Source: an uncultured bacterium
GTDB lineage: Bacteria > Patescibacteriota > Minisyncoccia > Phycocordibacterales > PALSA-1337
Direction of reading: 5' to 3'
Assembly: GCA_903846945.1 (NCBI GenBank)
Contig: CAINCE010000073.1
Coordinates: 13,626 to 77,625, forward strand
Length of the DNA: 64,000 bases
The notes below the pieces were generated by a model that saw only the letters and a list, made by a program, of their open reading frames with translations, made no database searches and was not told where the DNA came from. This document shows positions 20,369-50,977 of the stretch, in pieces (position 1 is the first letter of the stretch; each line of letters begins with the position of its first letter). A program made the position numbers and the translations under genes.

Positions 20369-20370
20369 AA

Positions 20371-21834: not shown

Positions 21835-21836
21835 TT

Positions 21837-21909: not shown

Positions 21910-21926
21910 AGTTGGTCTTTAAAATT

Positions 21927-24954: not shown

Positions 24955-25135
24955 TCTATTCGTCCAACAATCTCTTTCTAATCACACATCGTGCGACTAC
25001 ATCCCTCCTCCAGGAATGCTCAACTGAGAAAAAAGACCACCGAAGTTTCGATTGGTAGAATGTATTCATTATGTTCGAGCTTATCTTCTGTAATGATAAT
25101 GAATACGTTCCACCAATCGATAGTAGTAGAAACAT
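24955..25135 (-). repeat. 181-bp conserved 5' leader, copy 1, upstream of the DEDDh exonuclease gene
   Basis: About 95% identical to 27186..27366; contains a roughly 24-bp imperfect hairpin (cgattggtggaacgtattcattat ... ataatgaatacattctaccaatcg). Confidence 0.7.
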
Positions 25136-25146
25136 ATGATATTTTT

Positions 25147-25197
25147 CTGTTTTCGTCCTTTCGGACTCATCAGTCGGGATACACATCCCGAGAACAG
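25147..25197 (-). ncRNA. hammerhead ribozyme, type III (HHR5, minus strand)
   Basis: Minus-strand read: CTGTTC / TCGGGA-TGTGTA-TCCCGA / CTGATGAG / GTCC-GAAA-GGAC / GAAA / AACAG; stem III 5 bp; cleavage after UUC. Preceded on the minus strand by hairpin GGAGAAGCTTTTGGTTAAAAGCTTCTCC (25199..25226). Confidence 0.75.
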
Positions 25198-25335
25198 TGG
25201 AGAAGCTTTTAACCAAAAGCTTCTCCATTTAACCTATGAAGTATTTTCCGCGTGCCTCATCATCACGCGCCGGGGAGCTTCCCCTCGGAATTACGCGGTA
25301 TGTTTATAGTCTTACCGATAAGACTTGAAGTGCTA

Positions 25336-27185: not shown

Positions 27186-27366
27186 TCTATTCGTCCAATA
27201 ATCTCTTTCTAATCACACATTGTGCGACTACATCCCTCCTCCAGGAATGCTCAACTGAGAAAAGAGACTATCGAAGTTTCGATTGGTAGAATGTATTCAT
27301 TATGTTCGAGCTTATCTTCTGTAATGATAATGAATACGTTCCACCAATCGAGAGTAGTAGAAACAT
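27186..27366 (-). repeat. 181-bp conserved 5' leader, copy 2, upstream of P2
   Basis: See 24955..25135. Confidence 0.7.
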
Positions 27367-33549: not shown

Positions 33550-33789
33550 CTAATTGTAAGTATTATCATCTCTCCGGACTATTTTATCCAATCTCGGGTG
33601 TCCATTTGTGTCGAAAAAGAAAAGAATACGAGTTTTACCAACTCGAGCACGATAATAGTTGTTATAACCCTTGAGTTTCTTGATGTCTAGGTTGTCTGTG
33701 TCTCCACCTTCGATCTTAGCCAATATTTCTAGAATAGAAGACCTCTCCTTTGGTAGAAGTTTGTCCAAGTACTTGTCGATCTTATTCAT
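33550..33789 (-). CDS. RelE/ParE-family toxin, putative
   Basis: 79 aa; YYRARVGKTRILFFFDTNGHPRLDKIVRRDD; overlaps the upstream partner by 4 nt. Confidence 0.55.
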   Translation of the reverse strand: MNKIDKYLDKLLPKERSSILEILAKIEGGDTDNLDIKKLKGYNNYYRARVGKTRILFFFDTNGHPRLDKIVRRDDNTYN

Positions 33790-34043
33790 TTTGACTTTTT
33801 TAGATGTTTAATCAACTCAGACATTAAAATCCCACCTTTTTTACTGTAGTTAGAGAAATCAGCTACAGTCTCCCAAGTCCCGTCGTCGCCCCACTCATCT
33901 ATCGGTTCTAGTTTGAATACGGGGCTGGATTTGCGTACTACGGTAAAAGAATGACCTTTATGTATCAGTTTTATGTATTTCTCGATATTTAGCCGTAAAT
34001 CTTTTAGACCTATGATGTTTGATTGTTTTGTTTGGGTAGTCAT
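33786..34043 (-). CDS. antitoxin partner, putative
   Basis: 85-aa ORF immediately upstream of the toxin with a 4-bp overlap. Confidence 0.45.
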   Translation of the reverse strand: MTTQTKQSNIIGLKDLRLNIEKYIKLIHKGHSFTVVRKSSPVFKLEPIDEWGDDGTWETVADFSNYSKKGGILMSELIKHLKKSK

Positions 34044-34099
34044 GTATGAAGTTTATCTTAAGGTAAACTTGGAGTCAAGGGTTTGTGCATAGCTAGTAA

Positions 34100-34260
34100 G
34101 AGCCCATCCACCATCTTCCCCCTGCCATATAAAGCCTTATTTTTGGCTACAAAACTGCGCTTCGTTCTCGCCATAATTCATTATGGCTCGAACTCCAGCT
34201 TGTTTTTCGCCTAAAAATAAAGCTTTCCTGGTAGGGTACCACGAGATGGTGGATGGGCTC
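34100..34260. mobile_element. 161-bp MITE-like element, copy 1
   Basis: 17-bp perfect terminal inverted repeat GAGCCCATCCACCATCT / AGATGGTGGATGGGCTC; flanked by TAA (34097..34099) and TAA (34261..34263); 98% identical to 50756..50916. Confidence 0.7.
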
Positions 34261-34307
34261 TAAGAAAAATTGCTTTTCTATACAGCTATATTATACTTGT
34301 AACCCAT

Positions 34308-34856
34308 ATGAAAGAGCGATTTGCTACAAAATTTGCAGGTTTACCGAAATACGCAGTCGGATTTGCTGGGACTATGTTATTTAGACTCATATCTCCTTTC
34401 TTGGGAATGTGGAATGTTTCACCACTCATGGCTACGGAGATCGCTGGCTCGAAGGCATACGGACCTTGGGTTGGAGGATTGTATGGGGCACTCAGTATAG
34501 TGCTTCTCGATATCATCGTTGGAAGAGTTGGGACATGGACTATAGTTACGGGATTAACTTATGGGGCTGTCGGGATATGGAGTGCGTATTTCATGAAGGA
34601 CCGTTCTGCATCTGCTCGCAACTTTGTACTAGCGAGCATCGTCGGCACTCTATCTTTCGACCTTATCACTGGAGTCCTGATGGGACCGATATTCTACGGT
34701 CAACCTTGGATGTCGGCGATCATCGGTCAGGTACCATTTACATTGAGGCATCTAGTGGGGAACATAGCATTCGCTAGCATGCTCGCCCCTTGGTTCTATA
34801 GGAAGATCATGACAAACCCACGATGGGAGTTGTCTAGGGTGTTCAGGTTTGTATAG
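34308..34856 (+). CDS. ECF-transporter S-component-like membrane protein
   Basis: 182 aa with about 5-6 TM helices; family assignment by general resemblance only. Confidence 0.45.
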   Translation: MKERFATKFAGLPKYAVGFAGTMLFRLISPFLGMWNVSPLMATEIAGSKAYGPWVGGLYGALSIVLLDIIVGRVGTWTIVTGLTYGAVGIWSAYFMKDRSASARNFVLASIVGTLSFDLITGVLMGPIFYGQPWMSAIIGQVPFTLRHLVGNIAFASMLAPWFYRKIMTNPRWELSRVFRFV

Positions 34857-35133
34857 TTTAGATTGGGGCTGAGTATTTCTGTCGACCTAAATATCGTTGA
34901 GCAAATATTCTTTGTGTAAATGCCAGCGTTGGTATTACTCGGAAGTGCTTGCAATAAAGCACCACCTAATGTATATTGTGTCAATAAGAAACCAAAGGTG
35001 CCTGTGATATAGTAGAAATATAGAAATGGCCGCGATAAATATATTAATAGATTAATCTAACATTCTTGTGTCGTCATCATCTACCGATCGTGTAGGGAAA
35101 GATGGCGTAGTTCAGGAATGACAATACAAACCC

Positions 35134-35718
35134 ATGTTAATACCAACAGTCATAGAAAAATCATCATTCGGCGAACGAGCATACGACATATATTCGCGCC
35201 TACTTCGAGACAATATAATATTCCTCGGTGGTCCTATCGACGACCACATGGCGAACCTCATCATCGCTCAACTATTGTTCCTCCAATCCGAAGATCCAAA
35301 GAAAGAGATCCAGCTCTATGTAAATTCTCCTGGAGGATCAGTCACGGCAACTCTCGCTATCATCGACACGATGCAACATATCAAGAATGATATCTCGACA
35401 GTCTGTGTCGGTATCGCAGCATCAGGTGCAGCACTAGTTCTCTCGGCTGGAACGAAAGGGAAGCGCCTCGCGTTACCTAACTCTGAAGTGATGATCCATC
35501 AGCCTATAGGGGGTGCAGAAGGTCAGGCATCAGATATCGAGATCAGTGCAAAACATATTTTGAAAATGAGATCAGCTCTAAACAAGATGCTCGCCAAAAA
35601 TACTGGTCAGCTATTATCAAAGATCGAGAAAGATGTTGACCGCGACTTCTTCATGGATGCAGAAGAGGCGAAGAAGTACGGAGTGATCGATCAAGTGGTT
35701 ACAGGAAAGAAATTGTAA
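35134..35718 (+). CDS. clpP: ATP-dependent Clp protease proteolytic subunit
   Basis: 194 aa; [20 protein letters not shown] and MIHQP catalytic triad context. Confidence 0.95.
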
Positions 35719-35785
35719 TAACCAATAACCAATAACCAAAAAGTCTCTGGTTATTGATGTTTGGTTATTGGAGCGATCTAATTAC

Positions 35786-36583
35786 ATGAGGTTACACAGA
35801 TTCCATATTCAAAGTCCGATCGAAGTTGGCAGAGAATTGACCATCAGTTCTCCCGAACTCATCAGTCAACTAACAAAAGTATTCCGAATGAGAGTTGGCG
35901 ACCATCTCATCGTCTTCAATGGAACAGGTTTTGACTATGAGTGCAAGATTGACAATATAAATAGAAGGAGTACTATAGTTAGCAATAGTGTTATCAGCTT
36001 AACGGTCCTCGATTCGCAACGCAATAATTTTTCACAAGTGCAGAAGCTTTTTTTGGGCGCAGCAGTTATCAAGAAAGATCACTTCGAATGGATCGTAGAG
36101 AAGGCGACAGAGCTCGGAGTTACAGATATCGTTCCCATAGCTGCAGAGAGGAGTGAGAAGAAAGCTTTGAACGAAGAACGCTTGAGGAAGATCGCGGTCG
36201 AAGCGAGTGAACAGTCTGGGCGCGACACTACTCCCATGGTGTGGCCGATCATGGAATCGGAGAGTGCTGTCTCATTGTTAAAAAAAGAAAATCCTGGAGT
36301 AAAGATATTTGTGTTTCATACTTGTATAGGTCAGACCTCTACAGAGGGTGAAAGTCGCAGCGGTGAGGCGGGTAGTGACATTCGTATGTTTAGGTCAAAC
36401 CTCGACACCTTGCATAGGTCAGACCTATGCACAGCTGTTTTCATAGGACCAGAAGGTGGTTGGTCTCCAGCTGAGATAGGGATGTTTCACAGAGAGGGGG
36501 CGGAGGTAGTCTGCCTCGGTCCTCAGGTATTGCGCGCTGAAACGGCCGTAGTTGCTGCCCTATCGGTGGTAGTATTCGGGTAA
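35786..36583 (+). CDS. rsmE: 16S rRNA (uracil1498-N3)-methyltransferase RsmE
   Basis: MRLHRFHIQSPIEVG...LTKVFRMRVGDHLIVFNGTGFDYECKI...GPEGGWSPAEI; carries a roughly 40-aa in-frame insert flanked by ATAGGTCAGACCT direct repeats. Confidence 0.75.
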   Translation: MRLHRFHIQSPIEVGRELTISSPELISQLTKVFRMRVGDHLIVFNGTGFDYECKIDNINRRSTIVSNSVISLTVLDSQRNNFSQVQKLFLGAAVIKKDHFEWIVEKATELGVTDIVPIAAERSEKKALNEERLRKIAVEASEQSGRDTTPMVWPIMESESAVSLLKKENPGVKIFVFHTCIGQTSTEGESRSGEAGSDIRMFRSNLDTLHRSDLCTAVFIGPEGGWSPAEIGMFHREGAEVVCLGPQVLRAETAVVAALSVVVFG

Positions 36584-36873
36584 TCAGACGTTTCATCTGC
36601 GATAGATTTCACACAGAAAATACTAATCATTACAGCGCTAAATTGCGCTATTGACACATATGTCGTTTGGGTGTATAATACAGGCAGTATTTAGGTCCTT
36701 GAAATGTAAGGAATCAGATGCGAAATTGAGGCCATAAATATTATTAGTTGAGATAATACTAAATATGTTAGTCGCTTCAACTTCGCGTCTGATTACACAC
36801 TGATAAGCTCTCTGGTTTTCCACGCGGTGGAGACGAAGAGATGACACAGTCACTATGATGATGCGAGTATGTT

Positions 36874-37626
36874 ATGAATGCAAATATTGCAACACCAGGC
36901 ATGTGCCTGTCAGCGGGTGCGCGGTTCGCGACGAAACTTGGTTCGATCAGTGCTTCACATGATCTTGTGGACGCATTTCTGAAAGAGGGTGACAGTCACT
37001 CCTTCTACCAGGTTATCCTCGAACACTTCACTCCCAAGGCATCGAAGACCCAGTCACTCACACCGTGGGTTGCTGCGGCACTCGCGAATTGGGGAGACTT
37101 CTACCAGAAGTTCTTCGGTATCGACCTTGATGTGACGGCCATCCGTATTCCCGAGAAGGTGGACGGCTTCGACCGCCTGATCGTGGTCGCGAAGGGGATT
37201 CGTCTCAATCAAGTTTGGAATGCTCACGAAGAGCGTGAGATCCGAACCTGGAAGTGGTGGAGTGGCTCACTCGAGAAGGCGATGCAGGAATCTGAACGCG
37301 GTCCCGTGAAAGAGAGTTACGCATTCTGGGTTCGCGATGTTCAAGAAGCTGATGAGGAGAATAAGAATCTCTCTGCTCAGATGATCGCCGACAGCCCGAA
37401 AAAGATCGACACCGAGACTCTGCTCGAGAGGCTCGTACATGGACTCAAGTTCTGGGACGAGATAGAGAAGCAACTCGATGTGAATAACATCACGTTGTGC
37501 GCCTCGTCGCGCTGTGCCGATGGCGATGTGCCGCGGGTCTGTTGGGACGTCGGCGACGTGAACGTCGGCAGGTACGGTCCTTCGCTTCGCGATCCGGACT
37601 TGCGTGCCCGTCAGGCAGTTCGGTAG
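36874..37626 (+). CDS. DGR target (variable) protein with C-terminal C-type-lectin-like variable region
   Basis: 250 aa, GC-rich; C-terminus CADGDVPRVCWDVGDVNVGRYGPSLRDPDLRARQ is encoded by the VR; the TR-encoded NWNDDNVNVNRYNPSNRNPNLRARQ resembles CLec-fold DGR variable regions. Confidence 0.7.
   Translation: MNANIATPGMCLSAGARFATKLGSISASHDLVDAFLKEGDSHSFYQVILEHFTPKASKTQSLTPWVAAALANWGDFYQKFFGIDLDVTAIRIPEKVDGFDRLIVVAKGIRLNQVWNAHEEREIRTWKWWSGSLEKAMQESERGPVKESYAFWVRDVQEADEENKNLSAQMIADSPKKIDTETLLERLVHGLKFWDEIEKQLDVNNITLCASSRCADGDVPRVCWDVGDVNVGRYGPSLRDPDLRARQAVR
37506..37616 (+). repeat. DGR variable repeat (VR)
   Basis: 111 bp homologous to TR 37867..37977; about 20 mismatches, every one where TR has A and VR has G/C/T. 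Confidence 0.85.
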
Positions 37627-37658
37627 CGGTGTCCTTACACCTTGTTCCTTTTTCACTC

Positions 37659-37682
37659 GGCACAGAGACTTGTCTCTGTGCC
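37659..37682 (+). promoter_or_regulatory. GC-rich hairpin GGCACAGAGAC-TTG-TCTCTGTGCC downstream of VR
   Basis: 11-bp perfect stem about 43 nt 3' of the VR; DGR target sites commonly carry such a hairpin. Confidence 0.5.
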
Positions 37683-37866
37683 GACTTTTCGTATACAATA
37701 CTTCTGGTTATGAAATTTGTTGTCACATTGATGACGATAACAATTTACCAAACTTAGAAACTGCCTGTCTCCATTTATACTACGATCAAAGTACCCCGAG
37801 TTTGACACAGAGAACTTTGGTGGAAGAGGAAGGTTCTCGGAGATGTGGACGAAAGGAGACAGAATG

Positions 37867-37977
37867 GTCGCGCTATGCCGATGGCAATGTGCCGAAGGTC
37901 AATTGGAACGACGACAACGTGAACGTCAACAGGTACAATCCTTCGAATCGCAATCCGAACTTGCGTGCCCGTCAGAA
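37867..37977 (+). repeat. DGR template repeat (TR)
   Basis: A-rich copy of the VR; followed by hairpin GGAGTCT-TTATTTAA-AGACTCC plus TTTT (37986..38012). Confidence 0.85.
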
Positions 37978-38036
37978 GTTTCTCGCATTTATAGAGGAGT
38001 CTTTATTTAAGAGACTCCTTTTGCGTATAGATGCCG

Positions 38037-38375
38037 TTACGAGCTTGTCTTTAGGGAGGCTATGTATGAAATCCATTTACTTAACATTCGTGAAATTTCC
38101 ACTATTTCCTTTGAGAGTTGTATGTATTTGTCTTCGCTGATAATTTTTAGTTCGTGTTCAGTGCGAATGAGGTTCTTCAATACTTCCGCCTGAACCCTTG
38201 CTAGTTCCAATGTCTTCAGTTTTTGCTCTCTCCGTGTAAATGCCGCTTCTATTAGCAGGGCTAGCAACTTGACCGCGAGATCCTCATTAAGTTTATGAAT
38301 TCCCAATTTATCTCGTTTGGACAATTCGTGTCCTGTGGTATAAATATCCTTATGCAGAATTCTAACTCTATTCAC
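38037..38375 (-). CDS. avd: four-helix-bundle protein, Avd-like DGR accessory protein
   Basis: 112 aa, helical; C-terminal ISEDKYIQLSKEIVEISRMLSKWI; located between TR and RT but on the opposite strand. Confidence 0.65.
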   Translation of the reverse strand: MNRVRILHKDIYTTGHELSKRDKLGIHKLNEDLAVKLLALLIEAAFTRREQKLKTLELARVQAEVLKNLIRTEHELKIISEDKYIQLSKEIVEISRMLSKWISYIASLKTSS

Positions 38376-38385
38376 AATAGTCGGT

Positions 38386-39459
38386 GTGCTGTTGGTATCG
38401 GAAATACTCGCGATATCAGTGGGGCAGACTTTGCGGGGGGGGGGCGCTCATAGTTGTGATTTTTATGATGTAATTTCTATCAAAAATTTACTGATAGCTT
38501 GGAAGGAATTTAGAAAGGGAAAAAGATCGAATGCCAATGTTGCTTCATTTGAACTTTGTTTGGAAGAAAATATATTTAACATGCATAGGATTCTTTCTAC
38601 AGGGACATGGAAACCAGACCCTTATAGAGTATCAGTAATTCAAGATCCGAAACGACGGACCATTCATGCGGCTAGTATACGAGATCGGGTTCTCTATCAA
38701 GCATTATACAGGAAATTGTATCCTGTATTTGATCAGCATTTTATCTACGATGTGTACTCCTCGCGAAATTTCAAGGGGACACACGCTGGTGTGGGAAGAT
38801 TTGCTGTATTTACTAGAAAAGTTTCGCAGAATTATACGAGAGCCGGATATGTATTGAAGTGTGATATACGAAAGTTTTTTGATTCTGTGGATCACCGTAT
38901 ATTGTTCCAACTCATTTCAAAGCGGATTTCGGATAAACGACTTTTGAGGTTGATTTACGATATTATCGATTCATTTCATCACGCTTCGAATAAAGGTTTA
39001 CCTCTTGGAAACGTGACTAGTCAGCTGTTTGCGAATATCTATATGAATGAATTTGATCAATTTGTTAAACACAGACTTAAGGCGAAATATTACATTCGCT
39101 ATTGCGATGACTTTATCATTGCGGAGGTGTCGCTAGAGATACTATTGAAGTATATAGAAACAATACGAGCAGTCCTCCATGAAGAATTGCTATTGGATCT
39201 ACATCCGAAAAAAGTTGAAATACGAAAGATACATAGCGGTATAGATTTTCTCGGCTACGTTTCTCTTCCACATTATGCAGTTATTCGAACTAGTACGAAG
39301 AATAGAATGCTTCGAAAGCTTCATGAAGCAAAAAAACAACGTGATTCGGGGGTCATTTCTAAAGCAAAATTTGATAGCATAGTTGCTTCATATTCTGGAA
39401 TGTTGAAGCATTGTAAGGGCAAGAAGATACTTGATCAGATCAAGGATATTATTAAGTAA
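38386..39459 (+). CDS. DGR reverse transcriptase
   Basis: 357 aa; domain 0 (NLLIAWKEFRKGK), motif 1-2 RRTIHAASIRDRVLYQAL, motif 4 LPLGNVTSQLFANIYMNEFD (the SQ variant typical of DGR RTs), motif 5 YIRYCDDFII (YxDD). A G10 tract sits at codons 17-20. Confidence 0.85.
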   Translation: MLLVSEILAISVGQTLRGGGAHSCDFYDVISIKNLLIAWKEFRKGKRSNANVASFELCLEENIFNMHRILSTGTWKPDPYRVSVIQDPKRRTIHAASIRDRVLYQALYRKLYPVFDQHFIYDVYSSRNFKGTHAGVGRFAVFTRKVSQNYTRAGYVLKCDIRKFFDSVDHRILFQLISKRISDKRLLRLIYDIIDSFHHASNKGLPLGNVTSQLFANIYMNEFDQFVKHRLKAKYYIRYCDDFIIAEVSLEILLKYIETIRAVLHEELLLDLHPKKVEIRKIHSGIDFLGYVSLPHYAVIRTSTKNRMLRKLHEAKKQRDSGVISKAKFDSIVASYSGMLKHCKGKKILDQIKDIIK

Positions 39460-39474
39460 AAAAGGTGAGGTTTT

Positions 39475-40563
39475 CTATTTTTCCCCCTTCTCCAACCACT
39501 GAAATACTTTTTCATTCATGATGACAGTAGCTGCATAGACAGTTGCTCTCTCACGGTCTGCGTCCTTGTAATGCTCGATGATGTGTGCGACCTCTGTTTC
39601 TATCTCTTCTTTTGTTGGTACGATGTTTTCTTTCTTGGATATCTCATTTAGAACGAGCTGCAACTTTGCCTTCTTCTCTGCATGAGGACGCCACTCCCTG
39701 CGAATGTCTTCGAGAGACTTCTTTGCATGTTTCAGATAGTCTTCCATCGTTACTCCCATCTGTTCGATGTCATGTCCGAACTGAGATTGGGTGCGATCTA
39801 ATTCTGCCTCCACCAAGATATCAGGCAGCTCGACTTTTGTTTTTTCGGCAATAGCATCAGCGATACGGATGCGCATCTTTTCTCTGGCTTCATCTTTCTT
39901 GTTCTCACCGATCATCTCACGAACTTTCACTTTGAAATCTTCGATGTTGGTAAAGTCACCAAGTCCACGGACGAACTCATCGTTGAATTCTGGGAGAGAG
40001 TCCATGATGGCTTTCTCATGCTCTTCTGGAGACAATTTTTCATGATCATGTCCTTCGTGTGATGCGTGCGACTTCCTAAGTTTTAGAATTGAATCATCAA
40101 CATCTTTATCGGTCACTTCGATCTTTGCATTTTTCGATTTCTCTACTTCTGCTGTGGCGGTCTTTTTGTAATCTGGCAATGTCATCTCGGGGACTATCGC
40201 AGTTGTGATTTTGAATTCGAGAGGGTTACCTTTTGCAATCTTGGTGATAGCAACTTTCGGTTTACCGACCGCATCTATCTTTTCATTTTGTAAAATATCG
40301 AGATATGCCTGTGAGATGGCGAGCTCTGCCATTTCTTCATTCACTGCTCCATCGCCAACTTTGGCAACGAGGACATTCTCTGGAATCATACCTTTACGGA
40401 AGCCGTCGACGGTTACATATTCATTGATATTTTTAAGCGCTTGGGCACGAAATTTCTCCCAGACCTCGACAGGTATGGAAACGGTTATCTCAACTTCTGA
40501 ACGATCGAGCTTTTTAATAGAGGCGGAGTCATAGGACTTCGCAGTATTCGATGTATTTATCAT
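39475..40563 (-). CDS. tig: trigger factor
   Basis: GFRKGMIPENVLVAKVGDGAVNEE ribosome-binding signature (GFRxGxxP); start taken at MINTSNTAK; the track start is a TTG further upstream. Confidence 0.8.
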   Translation of the reverse strand: MINTSNTAKSYDSASIKKLDRSEVEITVSIPVEVWEKFRAQALKNINEYVTVDGFRKGMIPENVLVAKVGDGAVNEEMAELAISQAYLDILQNEKIDAVGKPKVAITKIAKGNPLEFKITTAIVPEMTLPDYKKTATAEVEKSKNAKIEVTDKDVDDSILKLRKSHASHEGHDHEKLSPEEHEKAIMDSLPEFNDEFVRGLGDFTNIEDFKVKVREMIGENKKDEAREKMRIRIADAIAEKTKVELPDILVEAELDRTQSQFGHDIEQMGVTMEDYLKHAKKSLEDIRREWRPHAEKKAKLQLVLNEISKKENIVPTKEEIETEVAHIIEHYKDADRERATVYAATVIMNEKVFQWLEKGEK

Positions 40564-40629
40564 AAATGGGAGTTTACACGAATAATAAGTTGGGGGCAAG
40601 TATTGGCAGTATTGGCAGGATTTCTGACT

Positions 40630-41004
40630 CTAGAAATTTTGACTATCTATACCAGTTGTAGAGTTGTTGAGATCATTTTGTAATGATTGGATATCGTCGG
40701 TACTGTTAGTTATCGGCTGAACAGATGTTGTCGCTCGGTTAACATCTGCCTGTTGTGTCGCTACTGGAGAATTATCTGCAGGAGGTATGATCTGCTTGTT
40801 CGAATTTGCACCGATAAAATATAGAATGGCAGCAATGACGATGATGACTACTACAAAGATGGCGATGATCGGGCCAACCTTCTTTGAACTCGTGTTTGAC
40901 CTTGTAGGTGTTGTGACGGGAGGAGTCGGAGATGAAGGGCTGACTCGTGGTGTTTCGACGAGTATAGGGAGGTCTTTTATATCTGTGTTGTTTTGTTGGT
41001 CCAT
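40630..41004 (-). CDS. membrane-anchored hypothetical protein
   Basis: 124 aa; Pro/Thr-rich N-terminus and one TM helix (IIAIFVVVIIVIAAILYFI). Confidence 0.4.
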   Translation of the reverse strand: MDQQNNTDIKDLPILVETPRVSPSSPTPPVTTPTRSNTSSKKVGPIIAIFVVVIIVIAAILYFIGANSNKQIIPPADNSPVATQQADVNRATTSVQPITNSTDDIQSLQNDLNNSTTGIDSQNF

Positions 41005-41046
41005 GGAATTATTATAAATTATTTATAAATAGATAGTGAGAGAGAA

Positions 41047-41970
41047 TTATGGTGTAGTCGTGGCGGTGGTAGTAGCAGGAGGTGTAGAAGTTGTTGGGCG
41101 ACCTTCTCCTTTGTTTTCCCCTAGGCGCAGACCCATAGCTCTGGCGATAGCGACAACGACATCGTTCAGTGCCTTCTGGGCGTCTCTCAACGCTCTCTGT
41201 GCTCCGTTAGCGACCAATCGAGGCTTATCTAGGTCGATGGTTGTAGAAGCTGTAGAAGAACCTATATTAGCGGTACTCGTGGCAGATAAGTTCCTAATCG
41301 AGTTTATAGCATTCTGTGCTGCAGTGATCTTGGTATCCGCTATAGCTAGCAAGCGTCTAGCTTCTGTCATATCTCGTGTCGTTGATGCTGTAGTTGTACC
41401 CGTAGTTGCACCGATCTTATCAATACGAGACTGGATACGATCACGAACATTATGGAGATTGTTCACTGCTTTCTGGAGTTCTTTGACTATATTGTTCTTA
41501 CGAGCTTCGAAGAAGTGTATTAGCATCATTTTACCCCCATTCATATATCCACGATCATCTGATGCTTCGCCGCGACCATTTTTCTCGTCATTGCCCCTCA
41601 ATGGCGGAGTTGAAGTCGCCCGTGTAGTTGATGCGTTTCTGTCTCCTATACGAGGTGGTGTTGTAGAACCGTTCCATGGTCGCATGAGGCCTCCGACTAA
41701 TGGTCTAGTTGAACTTCCATTGATCATTCTAGTGGTACTAGCTCGGTCTTCCAATCTAGTATTCCTCAAATCTTGGTTGATTTTGGCGTTATCTAGCTTA
41801 TTTTGAATATCGTTTCTCAATTCTTGCCTCATAGTTGCTGGGGCAGGACGAGGGGGTACTCCTCGAGGTGTACCAGTGGCCGTACCATCGATCTGTGCTT
41901 TTAAAATGGTCGGCATAATGATAACCGCAACGAAAGCGATCAGTGCAAGTGAAATGTATGTTTTTTTCAT
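41047..41970 (-). CDS. secreted hypothetical protein
   Basis: Signal-peptide-like start MKKTYISLALIAFVAVIIMPTILKA; Thr/Ala-rich, helical. Confidence 0.45.
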   Translation of the reverse strand: MKKTYISLALIAFVAVIIMPTILKAQIDGTATGTPRGVPPRPAPATMRQELRNDIQNKLDNAKINQDLRNTRLEDRASTTRMINGSSTRPLVGGLMRPWNGSTTPPRIGDRNASTTRATSTPPLRGNDEKNGRGEASDDRGYMNGGKMMLIHFFEARKNNIVKELQKAVNNLHNVRDRIQSRIDKIGATTGTTTASTTRDMTEARRLLAIADTKITAAQNAINSIRNLSATSTANIGSSTASTTIDLDKPRLVANGAQRALRDAQKALNDVVVAIARAMGLRLGENKGEGRPTTSTPPATTTATTTP

Positions 41971-42111
41971 GGTTATTTTGATTATTGGTGAATTATTAGC
42001 CACATTATCGTGGTCATAATAAGTATATCATAGGAGTAATATTTGGGGTAACGAGAGTTCCCCGAGTTCAACAATCAATTGTTAGCGACAAGGTCTACCC
42101 TTGTCGGATAA

Positions 42112-44133
42112 TTAGACCAGGAATGCAACGATGAGCAATGCCACGATGTTCAAGATCTTGATCATTGGGTTTATCGCTGGACCTGCTGTGTCTTTGTAAG
42201 GATCACCAACCGTGTCTCCAGTGACAGCTGCTTTGTGAGCATCTCCACCCTTGCCACCATGTGCACCACCTTCGATATGCTTCTTCGCATTGTCCCAGGC
42301 ACCACCACCAGAAGTCATAGATATAGCCACAAATAGGCCAGTGACGATAGATCCTACGAGCAAACCCCCTAGAGCTACAGGACCCAAGACGAATCCGACG
42401 AAGATAGGAGCGACGATCGGGATGAGAGCAGGAACGATCATCTCCTTGATAGCGGCAGAAGTGACGATATCGACACATCGTGCATAGTCAGGTTTGGCAG
42501 TTCCTTGCATGATGCCTTTGATCTCGCGGAACTGGCGGCGAACTTCCTCAACGACTTTACCAGCTGCTTTTCCAACAGCTTCCATGGATAGGGCGGCAAA
42601 GTAGTAAGGTAGTAGACCTCCGATGAATAGACCGACGATAACGAGTGGGTCACTTAGGTCAAATAATACTTTCGGTGCCATTTTACACATTGCTCCGATC
42701 GGACATGCTGGGTTTATAACCTCTGTATACGAAGCGAACAATACTAGAGCGGCTAGACCTGCTGAACCGATAGCGTAACCTTTCGTAACAGCTTTGGTGG
42801 TATTACCGACAGCATCTAGCGGATCTGTAACATCGCGAACTTCCTTTGGAAGGTTGGACATCTCTGCGATACCGCCAGCATTGTCAGTGATAGGTCCGTA
42901 TGCGTCGATAGCGACGATGATACCTGCCATAGAGAGCATGGACATTGCAGCCACTGCTATACCGTATAGACCTGCGAAGTAGTAAGCGGCGAGGATACCT
43001 AGAACTATCGTTATGAGAGGCCATGCTGTGGATTTCATCGAGATAGCTAGACCTTGGATGATGTTAGTACCATGACCAGAGACGGAAGCTTTGGCTATGG
43101 ACTGGACGGGTGCGTACTTGGTCGAAGTGTAGTACTCAGTGATGACGACCAAGAGTGCTGTAACTATGAGACCGACTAGTGTACAACCAAATAGATTTGC
43201 AACACTGTAGAGGCCATTTAGTTTCATTAGTACATTTGTAACAGGGTAGAAGACGATAGCAGAGAGGACGGCCGCGACGATGAGACCTTTGTACATGGCA
43301 CCCATGATATTCTGTGACTTTCCTAGTTTTACGAACCATGTACCGATGATCGAGGCGATGATGGCGATACCACCTAGAGCTAGTGGATATACGAGCGCAC
43401 CACTAAATCCATTGAATATAGTGTTTCCGAGCATCATGGCGGCGATAGTGGTAACAGCATATGTTTCGAATAAGTCAGCTGCCATGCCTGCGCAGTCTCC
43501 CACATTATCTCCGACATTGTCAGCGATAACTCCTGGATTTCTAGGATCATCTTCTGGGATGCCGGCTTCAACCTTTCCTACTAGATCCGTTCCTACATCA
43601 GCGGCTTTGGTAAATATACCTCCACCTAGTCTAGCGAATACTGATATGAGAGACGCACCGAATGCTAGACCGATGAGTGAACTGATATCCTTGGTTATGG
43701 CGTAAAATCCTGTAACTCCGAGCAGAGCTAAACCTACTACGAGAAATCCCGTCACGGAACCGCCTTTGAATGCTAAGTCGAGTGCTGGAGCTAGTCCGTG
43801 TCGAGCTGCCTCTGCTGTACGGACATTGGTTCTAACAGATACATTCATACCGATATATCCAGCTAGGGCAGATAGGACAGCACCGACGATGAATCCTAGT
43901 GCGATAGTGATACCTAGTGCTAGCCATAGGACGATGAATAGGACCACGGCGATCATGGCGATAGTGCGGTATTGGCGGTTTAGATATGCCTTGGCACCTG
44001 CCTGGATAGCAGCGGCGATCTCCTTCATTTTGTCATTTCCCGCGGATTTCTTTAGGATAGAATTGATAAGGTATGCTCCATATAGTAGAGCGATGATAGA
44101 AGCTACGAGAGCGAAGATGATTGAGTTTGACAT
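42112..44133 (-). CDS. hppA: membrane-bound proton/sodium-translocating pyrophosphatase
   Basis: 673 aa, about 15 TM helices; [38 protein letters not shown] and [14 protein letters not shown] motifs. Confidence 0.95.
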
Positions 44134-44566
44134 TTTATTGAGTCAAAAGTCTTTAAAGTATTTAAAGTCTATAAAGTTATATTGGTGCACTTTATGGACT
44201 TTATGGACTTTCGACTTTATGGACTGGTTTGATATTTGATAATTAATAATGATAACTATACAATAGTGCCGATTCTAGCAGGTTTTCGTGCATTTGGGAG
44301 GGTTGACAGAATATATATATACTTATGTAAGATTTTGTTGAATCGAAAGGAGATGATTCCTACTTTAGTATCATTCAAGATAAAGTTGTATCTGTCATAA
44401 CTATTGACCATTAAAGCAAAACCGCACAAACCTTTGCGATCATCCCTTGGATGGTCCCGTTGTGCGGAATTACTTGATTTCTAATCTATTCTGAGTAATT
44501 ATTTCTAGTTAAGTAGACTGTGACGTTCCATGCACGTTCGATGGTAGCCGAAGTACCGTCGAGCAC

Positions 44567-45577
44567 TTAATGCCCCTTGACGTGTTTGCTGATGGACTCC
44601 GCATCTAAACTATAAGCTCTAACAAAGGAATCGTCCACATGAGCATACAGAATACCCTTACCTCTATCGACTTCTACGAATTGACTAGCAAAAGTGATCG
44701 TCTTTGCCTCACTATCTCTGATGAGTGGTTCTGGTGATACCCAATCAATGACCCCATTTTCATAGTCATAGATAAATAGGCCTATTGAAAATATTCCGTA
44801 TTTTATCGTATCACCAACTCTCATGTTAGCTTCACGCCCGTTCATCACACCTAGTAATTTTCCTTCTCCTACATCGATGAAATCTCTAGAAAATAGTGGT
44901 CCAGGGGAAGCGTGCCCACCGATCCAAGGAATCTCGTGTTCAGCAGGGTGAAATACTATCTCTCCAAATTTCCAGTTTTTCCCCATATCGTCAGCCACCG
45001 CGAGTCTCACGACAGAATATGTAAAGTCACTTTCTGTTTTGCCTGATTCGACGAGGTTGTATCTAAACCCTTGTTTGTTTATAGGTGATATAGATAACTC
45101 TTTTGCACCACCTTGTTTGTCAGCCATGAGTACAGGCATCGTCATCTCAAGTGAGTCTAGGTCTCTGCCAACTGCATGACCTAGGTGAATCTTGGTATTG
45201 TGTTCGAGTTTATCTATGAGGGGAAGGGTAAAATATAAATGCATCAAATCGGTCTTTTCATCAATCCAGATATCAGGATCTTCAAGACCGATGAAATCCA
45301 ACCCGTCTTCGATGAGTTTACTTATGATTTCTTTCTCATTTTTTATATTTAAACGCTCACCTATTTGAAAAGATTCGAGTGAATTGCCTATTATCTTATG
45401 TAACTCACTTCGGTCGATGTATCCATGGACTTGGACATCACCTTCACGACTCGTTATGCACCTCGCGACCCCTTCTCTGTAATTTACTCGTGGGTCGAGT
45501 GAGATTGCCATCATATGTGTGAATCGTGGATTGGTATCTATCACTCTACCTGTATGCTGAATGTATCGGTTGTTCAT
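44567..45577 (-). CDS. hypothetical protein
   Basis: 336 aa; no confident family assignment. Confidence 0.45.
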   Translation of the reverse strand: MNNRYIQHTGRVIDTNPRFTHMMAISLDPRVNYREGVARCITSREGDVQVHGYIDRSELHKIIGNSLESFQIGERLNIKNEKEIISKLIEDGLDFIGLEDPDIWIDEKTDLMHLYFTLPLIDKLEHNTKIHLGHAVGRDLDSLEMTMPVLMADKQGGAKELSISPINKQGFRYNLVESGKTESDFTYSVVRLAVADDMGKNWKFGEIVFHPAEHEIPWIGGHASPGPLFSRDFIDVGEGKLLGVMNGREANMRVGDTIKYGIFSIGLFIYDYENGVIDWVSPEPLIRDSEAKTITFASQFVEVDRGKGILYAHVDDSFVRAYSLDAESISKHVKGH

Positions 45578-45650
45578 GGGTTGATTTTATAACAATCCAC
45601 GAGTGAGAGCAAACTTTCTCCAAAAAATTGGCGCTATACCCGAAAGGTAT

Positions 45651-46490
45651 TTATTTTTCAAATACCATCAGATGATGTCTATCTTGGATAGTAGGCTGAT
45701 CGAATCCTAGGTCTTTAGAATGTGTGCATTTCCAACCATATTTCTCAAACCTTTTTATCCAAGTGAATGGCGTCTCGTATGAGCCTGGAACTGGAATGTT
45801 GGCGTAGTTAAAAAATCTATTCCATAAAGAATCATTCAATATCATCCTTCCCCAATCCTGTTTCGCATTTTCATCATTATCTGCTTCTGGTACGGTTTCT
45901 ATGATGACAAGTTTTTTGGCTGTAATACGATCGAGTTCGGCAAGGATCTTTTCGTTATCAAATTCATGATGAATTACATTTGTAAGCACAGCACAAGAAT
46001 AATATTTATCTGCTACCGGTACAGAATACCCATCAAAGACTTTTACGGGTACAGTTATATTACTGGCGCGAAAATCCCTCACATCAACCCCTTCAATGTC
46101 TAGACCTAGTGAATCATGGAGTATCTGCGTGAATGTCCCACTTCCACAACCATAGTCAATGACTTTACCTTTGACTCCATCAAGAAATCTCTCCAATTGG
46201 CTGAACATGATCTGGAAACGCCCGGCGAGCCCATCTCGGATCATTTCAAAGACCGTCTTCCCGTTCACCTTTTCGGTTTCAAAAAACTTCTTAACTTTTG
46301 ATTCTGCATCCTCTATTGTTGAGGCGTTTTTTATGGAAGAAAGAACAAGCTCGGCAAATCTATTGGCTTGCTTTTGATCCGCGCCAAGTCTTTCAAAGGT
46401 CTTTGAATAATCGAGGAATACTTTTTCGTATGTATTCGGATCATCGGTCCATGTCTGTAAATTAGTAAGTAATTTTTTGTTGGATTCCAT
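45651..46490 (-). CDS. class I SAM-dependent methyltransferase
   Basis: VIDYGCGSGTFTQIL motif I; start taken at MESNKKLL. Confidence 0.75.
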   Translation of the reverse strand: MESNKKLLTNLQTWTDDPNTYEKVFLDYSKTFERLGADQKQANRFAELVLSSIKNASTIEDAESKVKKFFETEKVNGKTVFEMIRDGLAGRFQIMFSQLERFLDGVKGKVIDYGCGSGTFTQILHDSLGLDIEGVDVRDFRASNITVPVKVFDGYSVPVADKYYSCAVLTNVIHHEFDNEKILAELDRITAKKLVIIETVPEADNDENAKQDWGRMILNDSLWNRFFNYANIPVPGSYETPFTWIKRFEKYGWKCTHSKDLGFDQPTIQDRHHLMVFEK

Positions 46491-46684
46491 TTTGATTAAT
46501 AAGTTTATAAGAATAGAAAAGTATGATTTGATCGCTTGGCTACACATAGCAAAACCTCACAAACCTTTGCGATCATCCCTTGGATGGTCCCGTTGTGCGG
46601 AATTACTTGCTTACACAATATATTACACGAAAAATTCAATAAATCAATCTAGACATAGCTAACCATAGTATGTAGAATGAGACA

Positions 46685-46906
46685 ATGGCAAATCTAAGCA
46701 AACAATACCAAATATTTATCGGCAGAAAGATCCGTGTTGAGAGGGAAAAGATGGGGGTGTCGCAGGAAGGGTTAGGGAAACTAGCAAAAGTTCATCGAAC
46801 TTATGTTGGTATGGTTGAACGCGGTGAAAAGAATATAACTATACATAACCTGATCAAATTTGCCGATGCTCTCGGTGTGAAAGTGAGAGATTTGGTTGAT
46901 TTCTAA
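46685..46906 (+). CDS. XRE-family HTH transcriptional regulator
   Basis: 73 aa; MGVSQEGLGKLAKVHRTYVGMVERGEKNITIHNLIKFADALGV. Confidence 0.8.
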   Translation: MANLSKQYQIFIGRKIRVEREKMGVSQEGLGKLAKVHRTYVGMVERGEKNITIHNLIKFADALGVKVRDLVDF

Positions 46907-47255
46907 TCTATTCTGAGTAATTATTTCTAGTTAAGTAGACTGTGGATAACTAAATTGCTTGACATATCTTTTTACTTTGCTATGCTACTCATAGATAGCG
47001 CTAATCAAGATTAGCATGTCGAGAGTACAAAGATGAAATCAAAAACGAATATTTGGGTCATTGTTGGTGTGAGCAAATTTACCTTGCGTTCTGGTATTGA
47101 TTCCATGAGTACCCCGATCAAGGGTGATGAAATCGACGATCATGACGACAGGGTTCCGAACTGACCGTTAGTAACCAATGGTCAGTAGAGATATTTCCGC
47201 CTTAATTCAAAGGCGGCATAGCAAAGCAACAATATAGACCAAGATTAGAAATCTT

Positions 47256-47468
47256 ATGAAAAAAGCGTTTACCTTTCAGTTGAAAGACGACGACTTCAAA
47301 GTTTCTGGTTGGTGTGGAAATCGTCCAAAATGTGTCCAAGTCGCAGTAAAACCTCAAGGGGTTGCACTGCGGGACAGCAAAGACCCGTCGAAGACGACCC
47401 TCTTCTTCACCAATGGTGAGTGGAATGCCTTCACGAAAGGCGTCATCTCAGGAGACTTTCGACAGTAG
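47256..47468 (+). CDS. DUF397 domain protein
   Basis: 70 aa; FKVSGWCGNRPKCVQVAV...VALRDSKDPSKTTLFFTNGEWNAFTKGV matches the DUF397 pattern known from actinobacterial XRE-DUF397 pairs. Confidence 0.65.
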   Translation: MKKAFTFQLKDDDFKVSGWCGNRPKCVQVAVKPQGVALRDSKDPSKTTLFFTNGEWNAFTKGVISGDFRQ

Positions 47469-47534
47469 TCATTACATACTGACCGTGTTAGTTTCAAGAG
47501 GGGCACGACAAATGCCCCTCCCTTATTTAATTAC

Positions 47535-48032
47535 ATGATCTACATAATTCCTGGACTGGGAGAGGATTGTCAGTTGCTAAGATATAGAAGATTAAAATTA
47601 GCCCTACAATCCCAAGGGTACAAAGTAAAGTGTTTCAATCCTGACTGGTATAAGCCTCTGTCTGACCAGATATTTCGTGTTGAGAAGAATTCTATCGTTA
47701 TAGGCTTTTCTTTTGGTGCCGTTCTCGCGTATTTGATAGCCAAGAGATTTACATTCAAGAAGGTTATTTTCGCTTCACTTTCACCCATCCACGAGTTCAC
47801 ATTTGAAGATCTGGTGAATGATCTAAATAAACACATGCCAAGAAAACTTGCCGTTCAAATATCGAGGGATATCAAGAACATTAGGATTTCTATTGGTAGT
47901 CTGGATGTCCCACGAATTTCTTTGGCAGGGGAATATGAGAAGATGTTTGCGGACATCGTCGTCCCCAAGACAAGACATCGAATAACAAATCGATATATTG
48001 ACTATATATTGCTAGCGGTAGAGAGTTTGTAA
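47535..48032 (+). CDS. alpha/beta-hydrolase-fold protein, putative
   Basis: 165 aa; GFSFGA nucleophile elbow (GxSxG). Confidence 0.45.
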   Translation: MIYIIPGLGEDCQLLRYRRLKLALQSQGYKVKCFNPDWYKPLSDQIFRVEKNSIVIGFSFGAVLAYLIAKRFTFKKVIFASLSPIHEFTFEDLVNDLNKHMPRKLAVQISRDIKNIRISIGSLDVPRISLAGEYEKMFADIVVPKTRHRITNRYIDYILLAVESL

Positions 48033-49373
48033 TTACGCTTTCTTCTTTTTAGTTGGCTTTTCAGTAGAAGATGCTTTTTTGTCTCCTTCATCTGCAGCTT
48101 TCGTAACTTCTTCGACCGTCTCCTTTACCTCAACAACTTCATCTTTTGCTTTTTCGATGACCGCATCAGCGGCTTTTTCGGCTATTTCCTCTTTGACCTC
48201 TTCGATAGTGACGGTTTCCTCATCTTCGTCTGTACCGGGAGCTTCTGCTAGCTCTTCGCCACCAGTAGACTTGATATCTATCTTCCAACCGGTGAGTTTG
48301 GCAGCTAGACGGACATTCTGACCACCTTTACCGATAGCTAGTGACTGTTCATCTTCGGTAACTGTGACAACTGCACGATGAGATGAGTCGTCTAACTCCA
48401 GTGAGACAACTTCTGCAGGGGAGAGCGCTTCCTCGATAAATAGGGCAGCATCCTGATTCCACTCTATGATATCTATCTTCTCACCTGACAATTCGCTGGT
48501 GACAGTAGAAACACGAACTCCACGCTGACCAACCATCGAACCTATAGGGTCGATGTGCGGATCATGAGAAACCACGGCGATCTTTGAGCGAGAGCCAGCT
48601 TCACGGGCGATGGCTTTGATCTCGACAGTTCCAGATGCGATCTCTGGTGCCTCTGTTTCAAATAGTTTCGCTAGGAACTTTGGATGCGAACGGGAAAGTT
48701 TCAAAACGACACCTTTTGGAGTCTCTTCCACAGCGTAGAGATATGCACGGATACGATCTCCAGTCTTCCAGCGCTCGCTAGGAATCTGTTCTTCATATGA
48801 TATAACACCGACTGCGCGACCCATGTCTATATAGACTGTGCCTCGTTCGACTCGTTCGACTGTACCAGCGACGATCTGGTCTCTCTTCTCTCCATATTCT
48901 CCGAGAACGGAAACCTTCTCGGCTTCGCGAATCTTCTGAATGATGATCTGTTTGGCTGTCTGAGCGGCGATACGACCAAAATCAGCCTTGGTTTCGAGAG
49001 GGAAGATTAGTTCATCACCGATCTCCGCGTTCTTCTTTATCTTCCTAGCATCCTCGATGAGCATGTGCTGTTCTGGATTGAAACGGATCTTGATATCCTC
49101 AACATCTGCATCCTTGAGTTCTTTGTGGTCCATTTCCTCATCTCCTTCCATGATGACTTGGGCACGATCTACGACTATCTTTACCTGCCAGAACTCTACT
49201 CCACCAGAGTTTGAATCAAATGAAGCACGAACTATCTGGCCTTTCTTGCCATACTCTTTCTTGTAAGCGGTAGCTAGAGACATGGCGATAGCCTCGAGAG
49301 TTTTCTCACGAGGAATACCACGCTCTTCTTCTAGTTGTTGTACTACGGAATTGATGACTTTTAGATCAAACAT
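48033..49373 (-). CDS. nusA: transcription termination/antitermination factor NusA
   Basis: 446 aa; N-terminal domain, S1 domain, two KH domains, acidic C-terminal tail. Confidence 0.95.
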   Translation of the reverse strand: MFDLKVINSVVQQLEEERGIPREKTLEAIAMSLATAYKKEYGKKGQIVRASFDSNSGGVEFWQVKIVVDRAQVIMEGDEEMDHKELKDADVEDIKIRFNPEQHMLIEDARKIKKNAEIGDELIFPLETKADFGRIAAQTAKQIIIQKIREAEKVSVLGEYGEKRDQIVAGTVERVERGTVYIDMGRAVGVISYEEQIPSERWKTGDRIRAYLYAVEETPKGVVLKLSRSHPKFLAKLFETEAPEIASGTVEIKAIAREAGSRSKIAVVSHDPHIDPIGSMVGQRGVRVSTVTSELSGEKIDIIEWNQDAALFIEEALSPAEVVSLELDDSSHRAVVTVTEDEQSLAIGKGGQNVRLAAKLTGWKIDIKSTGGEELAEAPGTDEDEETVTIEEVKEEIAEKAADAVIEKAKDEVVEVKETVEEVTKAADEGDKKASSTEKPTKKKKA

Positions 49374-49915
49374 ATATTTATTATTTAGTTGTTATTTTGA
49401 TAAGCGAGGATCTGTGGATGATATCATACACAAGATTCGAGCGTAATCAAAAACTTCTATTAAGTTGTAATCTTACCCTTTTAACAAACAAGTCCGCCGG
49501 ACGGGCGAACAGTGACTAATATGAGTAATATAACATGTATATGTCGTTTGTGCAACTTATGCGCGCCTGAGTTCAACAATCAATTGCAACAGCTGTATTG
49601 CGATATTATTCTGACGATTCAGTAGAATCGCCTACTGGGTTCGAAGTCAGAACAAACGAGTAAATACTCCGCAGCTTGCTCGTGTAAAGAAACAGAGCTT
49701 CTACTTAATACCTCGCCAGCTTGCTGCGAGGTAGTTTATTACAAAACGAAATCATCCAATTAACTAGATTGCAAAACTTTTTAAAGTGGTAAGATTATAG
49801 TAACAAATAAAAGGAGTGCAAGTCGACACTCTTTTTTGATACGAGAAATGTGTCATGAATTTGATGGGTTACTAATTTACTAAATTATTACTATTTTAAT
49901 TAGTTTATAAATCAT

Positions 49916-50788
49916 ATGAATAATAATTCAAACAAATCACCGCAAGTGATAGGTCCGAGCAAGGGTTTTGAGTCTATAAAGAAATTGGATGAAAATGGGA
50001 TTGAATATTGGGAGGCGAGGGAATTAATGTGTCTTTTTGGCTATTCAGAATGGCGGTCGTTCGATGAAGTTATAACGAAGGCTATAGTTGCCGCAAAAAA
50101 TAGTAATCAAAACACGGAAAACCATTTTGGTCGATTGACCAAAATGGTGCGGACAGGTTCTAATACCGTAAGGCCAATTAAAGATTGGAAGCTAGATAGT
50201 TACGCATGTTATCTAGTAGCTCAAAATGGTGATTCTCATAAATTAGAAATTGCCGGTGCACAAACATATTTCGCGATCCAGACGAGAAAACAGGAAATAT
50301 TGGATAGTTTACCTCAAGCTGAGAGAAGAATACATATTCGTGAGGGTATGAGAATAGAAAATAGGTTCCTTTTTGGTGTTGCGAAAGATGCTGATGTATC
50401 AAAGTTTGGTGCATTCAATGGTGCGGGGTATAGAGGTCTATATAATATGTCGTTGTCAGAAATAGAAAAGAAGAAAAATATTGATAAGGGCGCCTTGCTC
50501 GATAGTGCTGGTTCTGTTGAGTTGGCAGCCAACCTGTTTCGTATCACCCAAATAGAAGCTAAACTAAAGAGGGACAGAGTTAAAGGTGATGATAATGCTC
50601 AGAGTACACATTTCAAAGTTGGTGCTAAAATACGTCAAACCATGAAAGAGCTCGGAAGTGAGATGCCTGAAAGCCTAAAACCAGAGAAACATATCAAGAA
50701 ATTGAAGAAAAATATCAAGAATGCAAAATCAGCACCTAATATCAAGGGTATCTCAGAGCCCATCCACCATCTTCCCCCTGCCATGTAA
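49916..50788 (+). CDS. dinD: DNA damage-inducible protein D-like
   Basis: YWEARELMCLFGYSEWRSFDEVITKAI...YACYLVAQNGDSHKLEIAGAQTYFAIQTRKQE...ELAANLFRITQIEAKL; the last 11 codons are supplied by the MITE-like insertion. Confidence 0.8.
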   Translation: MNNNSNKSPQVIGPSKGFESIKKLDENGIEYWEARELMCLFGYSEWRSFDEVITKAIVAAKNSNQNTENHFGRLTKMVRTGSNTVRPIKDWKLDSYACYLVAQNGDSHKLEIAGAQTYFAIQTRKQEILDSLPQAERRIHIREGMRIENRFLFGVAKDADVSKFGAFNGAGYRGLYNMSLSEIEKKKNIDKGALLDSAGSVELAANLFRITQIEAKLKRDRVKGDDNAQSTHFKVGAKIRQTMKELGSEMPESLKPEKHIKKLKKNIKNAKSAPNIKGISEPIHHLPPAM

Positions 50789-50916
50789 AGCCTTATTTTT
50801 GGCTACAAAACTACGCTTCGTTCTCGCCATAATTCATTATGGCTCGAACTCCAGCTTGTTTTTCGCCTAAAAATAAAGCTTTCCTGGTAGGGTACCGCGA
50901 GATGGTGGATGGGCTC
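50756..50916. mobile_element. 161-bp MITE-like element, copy 2
   Basis: Same 17-bp TIR; flanked by TCA (50753..50755) and TCA (50917..50919); 3 substitutions relative to copy 1. Confidence 0.7.
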
Positions 50917-50977
50917 TCATAAAGTATTCCACAGTTTGCAGTAAAATACACAGCGCAAAGTTTTCTGAAATGGTATA

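Follow-up and report, generated by a model that had tools for sequence, protein, structure and literature searches.

The window, that is, the whole 64,000-nt stretch of contig CAINCE010000073.1 from an uncultured Patescibacteriota bacterium that was analyzed here, contains two direct copies of a 161-bp repeat, both of which are transposable elements of the miniature inverted-repeat type (MITEs), of textbook structure. All positions refer to the window unless an L-number, which denotes another locus, is given. Copy 1 (34100–34260, plus strand) is located upstream of the gene for a DUF6580/energy-coupling factor (ECF)-transporter S-component-like membrane protein of 182 aa (34308–34856, plus strand). 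Copy 2 (50756–50916, plus strand) is found at the 3′ end of a dinD-like (Bro-N) gene encoding 290 aa (49916–50788, plus strand), which is followed by the gene of a PilB/MshE-like ATPase.

The two copies share 98% identity and differ at three positions (34129/50785 A/G, 34157/50813 G/A, and 34241/50897 A/G). Both are bounded by the terminal inverted repeats (TIRs) GAGCCCATCCACCATCT and AGATGGTGGATGGGCTC, which are perfect across 17 bp in copy 1 (34100–34116, plus, and 34244–34260, minus) as well as in copy 2 (50756–50772, plus, and 50900–50916, minus). The 17-mer GAGCCCATCCACCATCT has four exact occurrences in the window, where 0.15 would be expected even with three mismatches allowed. A fifth TIR-like match at 36451 (three mismatches) is unpaired, lies within a coding open reading frame (ORF), and is taken as chance. 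Directly outside the TIRs, copy 1 is flanked by TAA on both sides (34097–34099 and 34261–34263) and copy 2 by TCA (50753–50755 and 50917–50919), which constitute 3-bp target-site duplications (TSDs). An earlier note on this DNA had described a MITE-like unit with these features, and its coordinates, differences, and flanks were all confirmed. The palindromic core named in the same note is present as GCCATAAT..ATTATGGC in the center, and the palindromy extends over the whole element, which is quasi-palindromic from end to end. As a single strand the entire element folds into one long hairpin, with predicted energies of −43 kcal/mol for DNA (z −10) and −78 kcal/mol for RNA (z −12). Only spurious ORFs of 43 to 49 aa run across it. 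Consensus scans detected no promoter and no intrinsic terminator inside either copy, and BLAST searches against plasmid and phage collections returned only chance matches of 22 to 27 nt, or nothing.

Prokaryotic MITEs range in size from about 50 to 800 bp (PMC11602168). The element lies within this range at 161 bp and lacks coding capacity, and its perfect TIRs exceed the length of at least 10 to 15 bp that is demanded of a MITE. Its copies are flanked by TSDs and occupy multiple unrelated loci, namely four sites for the 161-bp subfamily and 18 for a wider family that shares its ends. A precise empty site exists for copy 2, and the situation at copy 1 is consistent with one on the right side only. 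The 16.6-kb interval between the copies could be mistaken for a composite transposon, but every copy is flanked by a TSD of its own, and the outer flanks are not alike (TAA on the left, TCA on the right). Since no outer duplication is shared, copy 1 and copy 2 are two independent insertions.

Copy 2 was inserted exactly between the last sense codon of dinD, TCA, which now serves as the left TSD, and the native TAA stop (50920–50922, plus strand), which now follows the last native codon at a distance of 164 bp. Translation of dinD extends 10 codons into the element (codons 281–290, EPIHHLPPAM) and ends at a TAA at 50786–50788 inside copy 2. The three closest DinD homologs (87, 85, and 80% identity; nearest homologs P0002–P0004) all comprise 280 aa, which is what the uninterrupted gene would be predicted to encode, compared with 290 aa for the protein of the window and two strain variants. 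The earlier note placed copy 2 in the 3′ end of dinD; its statement that the last codons were replaced does not hold, as none were lost and 10 were added. Further downstream, an extended −10-like sequence, TGGTATAAT (50971–50979, plus strand), can be assigned as a putative promoter element to the PilB/MshE-like ATPase gene; it is kept in the relative L177 and lies downstream of copy 2. The start codon of this gene is likely the ATG at 50990, because its homologs are 582 aa long. The first listed ATG of the ORF (50978) falls within the TATAAT box.

The right end of copy 1 is 47 bp away from the ATG (34308) of the DUF6580/ECF-S-like gene, and the copy had been described as sitting in the leader of this gene. 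However, the stretch in between holds a promoter-like sequence, TTGCTT-16-TATACT (34270–34297, plus strand). This sequence scores below the threshold of the consensus promoter scan and is kept in an alignment with relatives that do not carry the element (L179 and L180). Judged by the position of this candidate promoter, copy 1 probably lies upstream of the promoter and is not part of the leader. At both genes downstream of a MITE copy (34292–34310 and 50971–50992), conserved −10-like boxes stop only ~10 nt short of the start codon, and an obvious Shine–Dalgarno sequence is lacking; these features suggest leaderless or near-leaderless mRNAs. On the other side of copy 1, between it and the RNase Y gene, two small overlapping ORFs of 79 and 85 aa (33550–34043, minus strand) are placed in a toxin–antitoxin-like arrangement. 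This pair is missing from L179 and L180, and the intergenic region around copy 1 has therefore been remodeled more than once.

Both insertion sites can be compared with relatives. The locus L177 (GCA_964817355.1) is syntenic over NusA–DinD–PilB, with ~76 to 86% nucleotide identity to the window. It reads ...GGGAGA CCA TAA AGTATTCCACAGTTT... where the window reads ...GGTATC TCA (161 bp + TCA) TAA AGTATTCCACAGTTT..., and the original stop codon is continued by the same sequence in both (CCA TAA AGTATTCC in L177 versus TCA, MITE + TCA, TAA AGTATTCC in the window). L177 is thus short by exactly 161 + 3 bp, the element and one triplet. The earlier note had pointed to empty sites in related genomes as a check, and at this orthologous site L177 indeed lacks the element together with one TSD. 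At the site of copy 1, the homolog of the downstream gene in L179 (91% identical) is preceded by a single AGTAAGAACAATTGC, and homology restarts exactly at the right TAA (34261–34263); this empty site is one-sided, as the synteny upstream differs.

The sequence of copy 1 is reproduced at 100% identity in an independent assembly (L096), and the two junctions of copy 2 were recovered on separate contigs, the left one on L178 and the right one on L095. The recovery of the junctions in independent assemblies means that the element is not an assembly artifact. L095 begins at 50756 and L178 ends inside the element; that short-read contigs stop at or inside it is what a multi-copy repeat would lead one to expect. 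Further 161-bp copies with 97 to 99% identity are present at unrelated sites in L052, the GTDB representative metagenome-assembled genome (MAG) MJ-2014_bin-1666, with TAA/TAA flanks, and in L127, a JGI contig, with TAA/AAA flanks. From the 98% identity between copy 1 and copy 2, their insertions appear to be fairly recent.

These ends are found again in Candidatus Taylorbacteria RIFCSPLOWO2_12_FULL_43_20, and also on many contigs from a few groundwater-type metagenome samples. The members of this wider family have lengths of 39, 73/74, 112, 115/116, 163, 183, and 221 bp, and in the Taylorbacteria type the right arm carries one change (AGATCGTGGATGGGCTC). When the same site from overlapping assemblies is collapsed, 18 distinct insertion sites are counted. 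Perfect 3-bp duplications are seen at 15 of them: 14 are TAA or TTA, which are mutual reverse complements, and one is the TCA of copy 2. Wherever a duplication is present it is always 3 bp long, and the TNA triplet is found in all 15 perfect cases. The Taylorbacteria-type elements have mosaic interiors, assembled from a 73-bp base element with three optional modules (loci L004, L031, L069, and L099–L165). Only the TIR and ~20 bp beside it (...ATATAAAGC...) are common to the Taylorbacteria type and the window type. Few proteins are shared between the Taylorbacteria-type loci and the window, and these are only 40 to 57% identical; the same ends are therefore used in distantly related Patescibacteria. 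Read from the alignments, the combination of conserved ends and free interiors is the mark of recognition by a transposase and not of a functional RNA.

Some members of the family are strongly reduced. A mini-element of 39 bp with TAA/TAA flanks (L168 4717–4755) consists of barely more than two TIRs. Solo TIRs with a TTA flank (L104/L133/L136 and L134/L148) have neither a recognizable partner end nor a transposase in their vicinity and are presumably remnants of decayed or truncated elements.

Insertion at or beside a stop codon, as in dinD, is recurrent in the family. A 589-aa ORF in L127 uses the left TAA duplication (1847–1849) as its stop codon. A 443-codon frame in L120 ends in a TAG (~3167–3169) that is composed of the TA of the duplication and the first G of the element, and ORFs in L109, L116, and L130 enter the element and stop within up to ~18 codons. 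This recurrence fits an enzyme that prefers TAA, together with a gene-dense genome in which disruptive insertions are selected against. Insertions at stop codons are one route by which protein C termini change in these genomes, as illustrated by the additional 10 aa of DinD and by L127 and L120.

An autonomous partner of the IS1031 type (IS5 family) with the same ends would be expected to encode a DDE_Tnp_1-type transposase of ~250 to 300 aa within ~0.85 to 1.05 kb. The assumption of the earlier note that the transposase is encoded elsewhere agrees with the searches, as none was found in the sequence covered. A Pfam scan of 10 otherwise unassigned ORFs of the window yielded no transposase, and neither did the gene lists for ~10 kb past each window end. 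The DNA ~10 kb past the right end contains no partner and no further MITE copy; on the left, ~2 kb of DNA was covered. A relaxed TIR search (12-mer core, up to two mismatches, spacing of 0.4–3.5 kb) over ~330 kb of family-carrying loci gave nothing credible. Scans for exact TIRs returned 94 matches in the GTDB species representatives, 73 in the JGI metagenomes, and seven in IMG/VR. Most of these are chance matches in the coding sequence of unrelated phyla, and no parent insertion sequence (IS) was present among them. The three TIR-like pairs with the spacing of an IS (L018, L079, and L081) turned out to be ordinary genes, with products that end in ...EMVDGL or start with EPIHHL....

The nature of the mobilizing enzyme can be approached through the target triplet and the ends. 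The earlier note had suggested IS3- or IS30-like mechanics, in which the MITE would be derived from and mobilized by an element of one of these families. The confirmed 3-bp TSDs are compatible with both, given that IS3 elements duplicate 3 to 5 bp and IS30 elements 2 to 3 bp. To our knowledge, however, a TNA target rule is documented for neither family, and the fixed TNA triplet in 15 of 15 perfect duplications argues against IS30 despite the compatible length. IS3 elements end in TG...CA, whereas the element ends in GAG...CTC; the ends of IS1031-group elements are generally given as GAG. The IS1031 subgroup of the IS5 family prefers a 5′-TNA-3′ target and generates an exclusive 3-bp direct repeat (PMC12016507), and both properties are found at the family sites, with TAA, TTA, or TCA as the triplet. 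The IS1031-group element ISLrh from Lacticaseibacillus rhamnosus carries the 17-bp inverted repeat (IR) GAACCTGTCTAGTATCT (PMC12016507), which has the same length as GAGCCCATCCACCATCT and is identical to it at 11 of 17 positions in this one comparison. The chance of at least 11 identities in 17 is ~6e-4 for equiprobable bases. An origin from IS3 or IS30 is therefore very unlikely. A MITE of the IS630/Tc1-mariner (Stowaway-like) type was rejected as well, since it needs a TA duplication; here the duplication is 3 bp, and a 2-bp reading gives no direct repeats. Because of the TNA rule, the exclusive 3-bp repeat, and the similarity to the ISLrh IR, the mobilizer would most likely be an IS5-family, IS1031-like DDE transposase that acts in trans.

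On this basis, both repeats are very probably copies of a non-autonomous cut-and-paste MITE in a Patescibacteria/candidate phyla radiation (CPR) genome of the Paceibacterota-like kind, with the IS5/IS1031-like enzyme as the most likely mobilizer. Several points weigh against this. The IS1031 assignment stands on the target rule and a single IR comparison, and repeats of 2 to 4 bp are likewise left by the IS5 subgroups ISL2 and IS427. At three of the 18 sites the duplication is imperfect (TAA/AAA in L127; TTG/TTA and TCA/TTA in L137 and L109/L164). The searched sequence yielded neither a full-length element nor a transposase with these ends, and the exact-match scans demanded 17- to 18-mers and would miss a parent IS with slightly different ends. 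The MITE might accordingly belong to another IS5-related lineage, that is, to the ISL2 or IS427 subgroup or to a PIF/Harbinger/ISL2EU-like transposase new to bacteria. Such a lineage would leave the same 3-bp TWA duplications, Tourist/mPing elements duplicate TAA or TTA (PMC2836001), and the sequence searched contained no parent IS by which the subgroups could be told apart. The strict 3-bp length and the likeness of the IR, on the other hand, best match the description of the IS1031 group (PMC12016507), and Harbinger systems are eukaryotic and need two proteins (PMC2836001). This lineage is a less probable source, though one to be taken seriously.

The stability of the predicted hairpin and the position of both copies just upstream of plus-strand genes could also point to a conserved structured noncoding RNA or a regulatory hairpin, such as a riboswitch, a terminator, or a small RNA. 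The earlier note had regarded a conserved riboswitch or noncoding RNA (an Rfam hit) at orthologous positions in distant relatives as evidence against a MITE. The element has no Rfam match at the gathering threshold or even at E ≤ 10, and it is missing from the orthologous site in L177. No T-run follows the stem, no terminator was called, and the copies lie in unrelated gene contexts. An RNA gene would leave the flanking 3-bp direct repeats unexplained, and relatives keep the termini only while their interiors are swapped, which makes an RNA function highly improbable. The palindromy and the mostly intergenic placement are further reminiscent of repetitive extragenic palindromic (REP) or bacterial interspersed mosaic element (BIME) sequences spread by an IS200/IS605-like REP-associated tyrosine transposase (RAYT). 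REPs are 20 to 40 nt long and are not known to have the TIR-plus-TSD architecture, whereas TSDs are nearly universal in the present family and an empty site exists. Together with an assembly artifact, against which the junctions reproduced by independent assemblies speak, this can be set aside with near certainty.

If the element is an IS5/IS1031-type MITE, its insertion could be envisaged as follows. A DDE transposase supplied in trans would bind and cleave at the 17-bp TIRs and ~20 bp of subterminal sequence. It would cut a 5′-TNA-3′ target with a 3-nt stagger, and repair of the staggered cut would produce the TAA/TAA and TCA/TCA duplications. The enzyme would belong to the IS5 family and be IS1031-like; such transposases are considered bacterial relatives of the PIF/Harbinger enzymes that move Tourist MITEs. 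Both insertions would do little harm, as copy 1 lies upstream of the promoter-like box and copy 2 gives DinD a tail of 10 residues. The element would have no cellular function of its own beyond forming a large hairpin if it is transcribed.

The window has several further features. Homologs of the flanking genes carry the names Patescibacteria group or Candidatus Paceibacterota, the GC content is 42 to 45%, and the gene content of the window, with a diversity-generating retroelement (DGR), hammerhead-like ribozymes, and DUF3800 loci, is compatible with a CPR genome. The DGR is located at 36874–39459. Its variable repeat (37506–37614) lies at the 3′ end of the ORF at 36874–37626, its template repeat lies at 37867–37975, and its reverse transcriptase (RVT_1) is encoded at 38386–39459. 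The two repeats are 109 nt each and differ at ~18 positions, at all of which the copy at 37867 has A. Five matches to type III hammerhead ribozymes (20022–20076, 20368–20421, 21313–21391, and 21834–21912 on the plus strand and 25145–25199 on the minus strand) score just under the Rfam gathering score (37–42 versus 48.5 bits; E 1e-6 to 3e-5). They lie within a repeat-rich region at 20 to 27.4 kb, beside a DUF3800 gene (23376–24032, minus strand) and a DUF3800-IX RNA (23284–23352). A direct repeat of 181 nt with 97% identity is formed by 24955–25135 and 27186–27366. Other direct repeats (44415–44522 and 46548–46944; 65 + 56 nt, 95–97% identity) bracket an ORF without a Pfam match (44567–45577) and a methyltransferase ORF (45651–46547). 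The bracketed segment differs in content from the syntenic L177 and may be a variable island. Four tRNA genes are interspersed with small ORFs at 14220–17413, and 81 nt within this region (14343–14423) are 91% identical to L052 5961–6040 on the opposite strand.

CPR/Patescibacteria genomes are tiny and gene-dense and are expected to be poor in mobile DNA. The presence of a recently active, end-conserved MITE family in more than one lineage shows that DNA is moved by cut-and-paste transposition in these bacteria. What is of interest is that distant CPR lineages carry identical ends, that the interiors are modular, that insertions occur at stop codons, and that the transposase is missing. In practical terms, the element explains contig breaks in short-read MAGs, offers presence/absence markers at the strain level, and, with its 17-bp ends and TNA target, provides a defined DNA substrate with which the missing transposase can be sought and tested. 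One may speculate, with considerable reserve, that an IS1031/Harbinger-like transposase is active now or was recently active across distant CPR/Patescibacteria. Its gene may reside on a phage or plasmid or in a host bacterium, and not in the ~1-Mb genomes themselves, and the enzyme would mobilize a superfamily of modular MITEs whose insertions repeatedly fall at or next to TAA stops. If this were true, such insertions would remodel protein C termini and transcript 3′ ends in genomes with almost no intergenic space.

Full-text literature searches gave no description of a MITE family in CPR/Patescibacteria, and the terms “CPR” and “Patescibacteria” are both absent from the main text of a 2024 MITE survey that covered 183,232 prokaryotic genomes. 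The family thus appears to be undescribed, although it is a known kind of element. Three known systems resemble it in different respects. The PIF/Harbinger transposases are eukaryotic relatives of IS5, and the TIR of mPing starts with GGCC. Tourist/mPing elements share with the element a small size, TIRs, 3-bp duplications of TAA or TTA, and insertion close to genes (PMC2836001), but they belong to a eukaryotic two-protein system and their TIR sequence is unrelated. The Correia elements of Neisseria, the RPEs of Rickettsia, and the MITEs of Coxiella (PMC5896051) and Cardinium (PMC9769881) are likewise non-coding TIR elements of small or compact genomes that form large hairpins and are often found at gene 3′ ends, where they extend or alter ORFs. 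They have other ends and no sequence similarity to the element, and the TSD differs at least from that of the Correia elements. The latter duplicate TA. The IS1031 subgroup of IS5, including ISLrh, which is taken here together with MITEs of IS5-family origin, agrees with the element in the exclusive 3-bp direct repeat, the 5′-TNA-3′ target, and a 17-bp IR that starts with GA.CC and ends with ATCT (PMC12016507); it differs in that the element is without a transposase gene, that no partner was found, and that its host belongs to the CPR/Patescibacteria.

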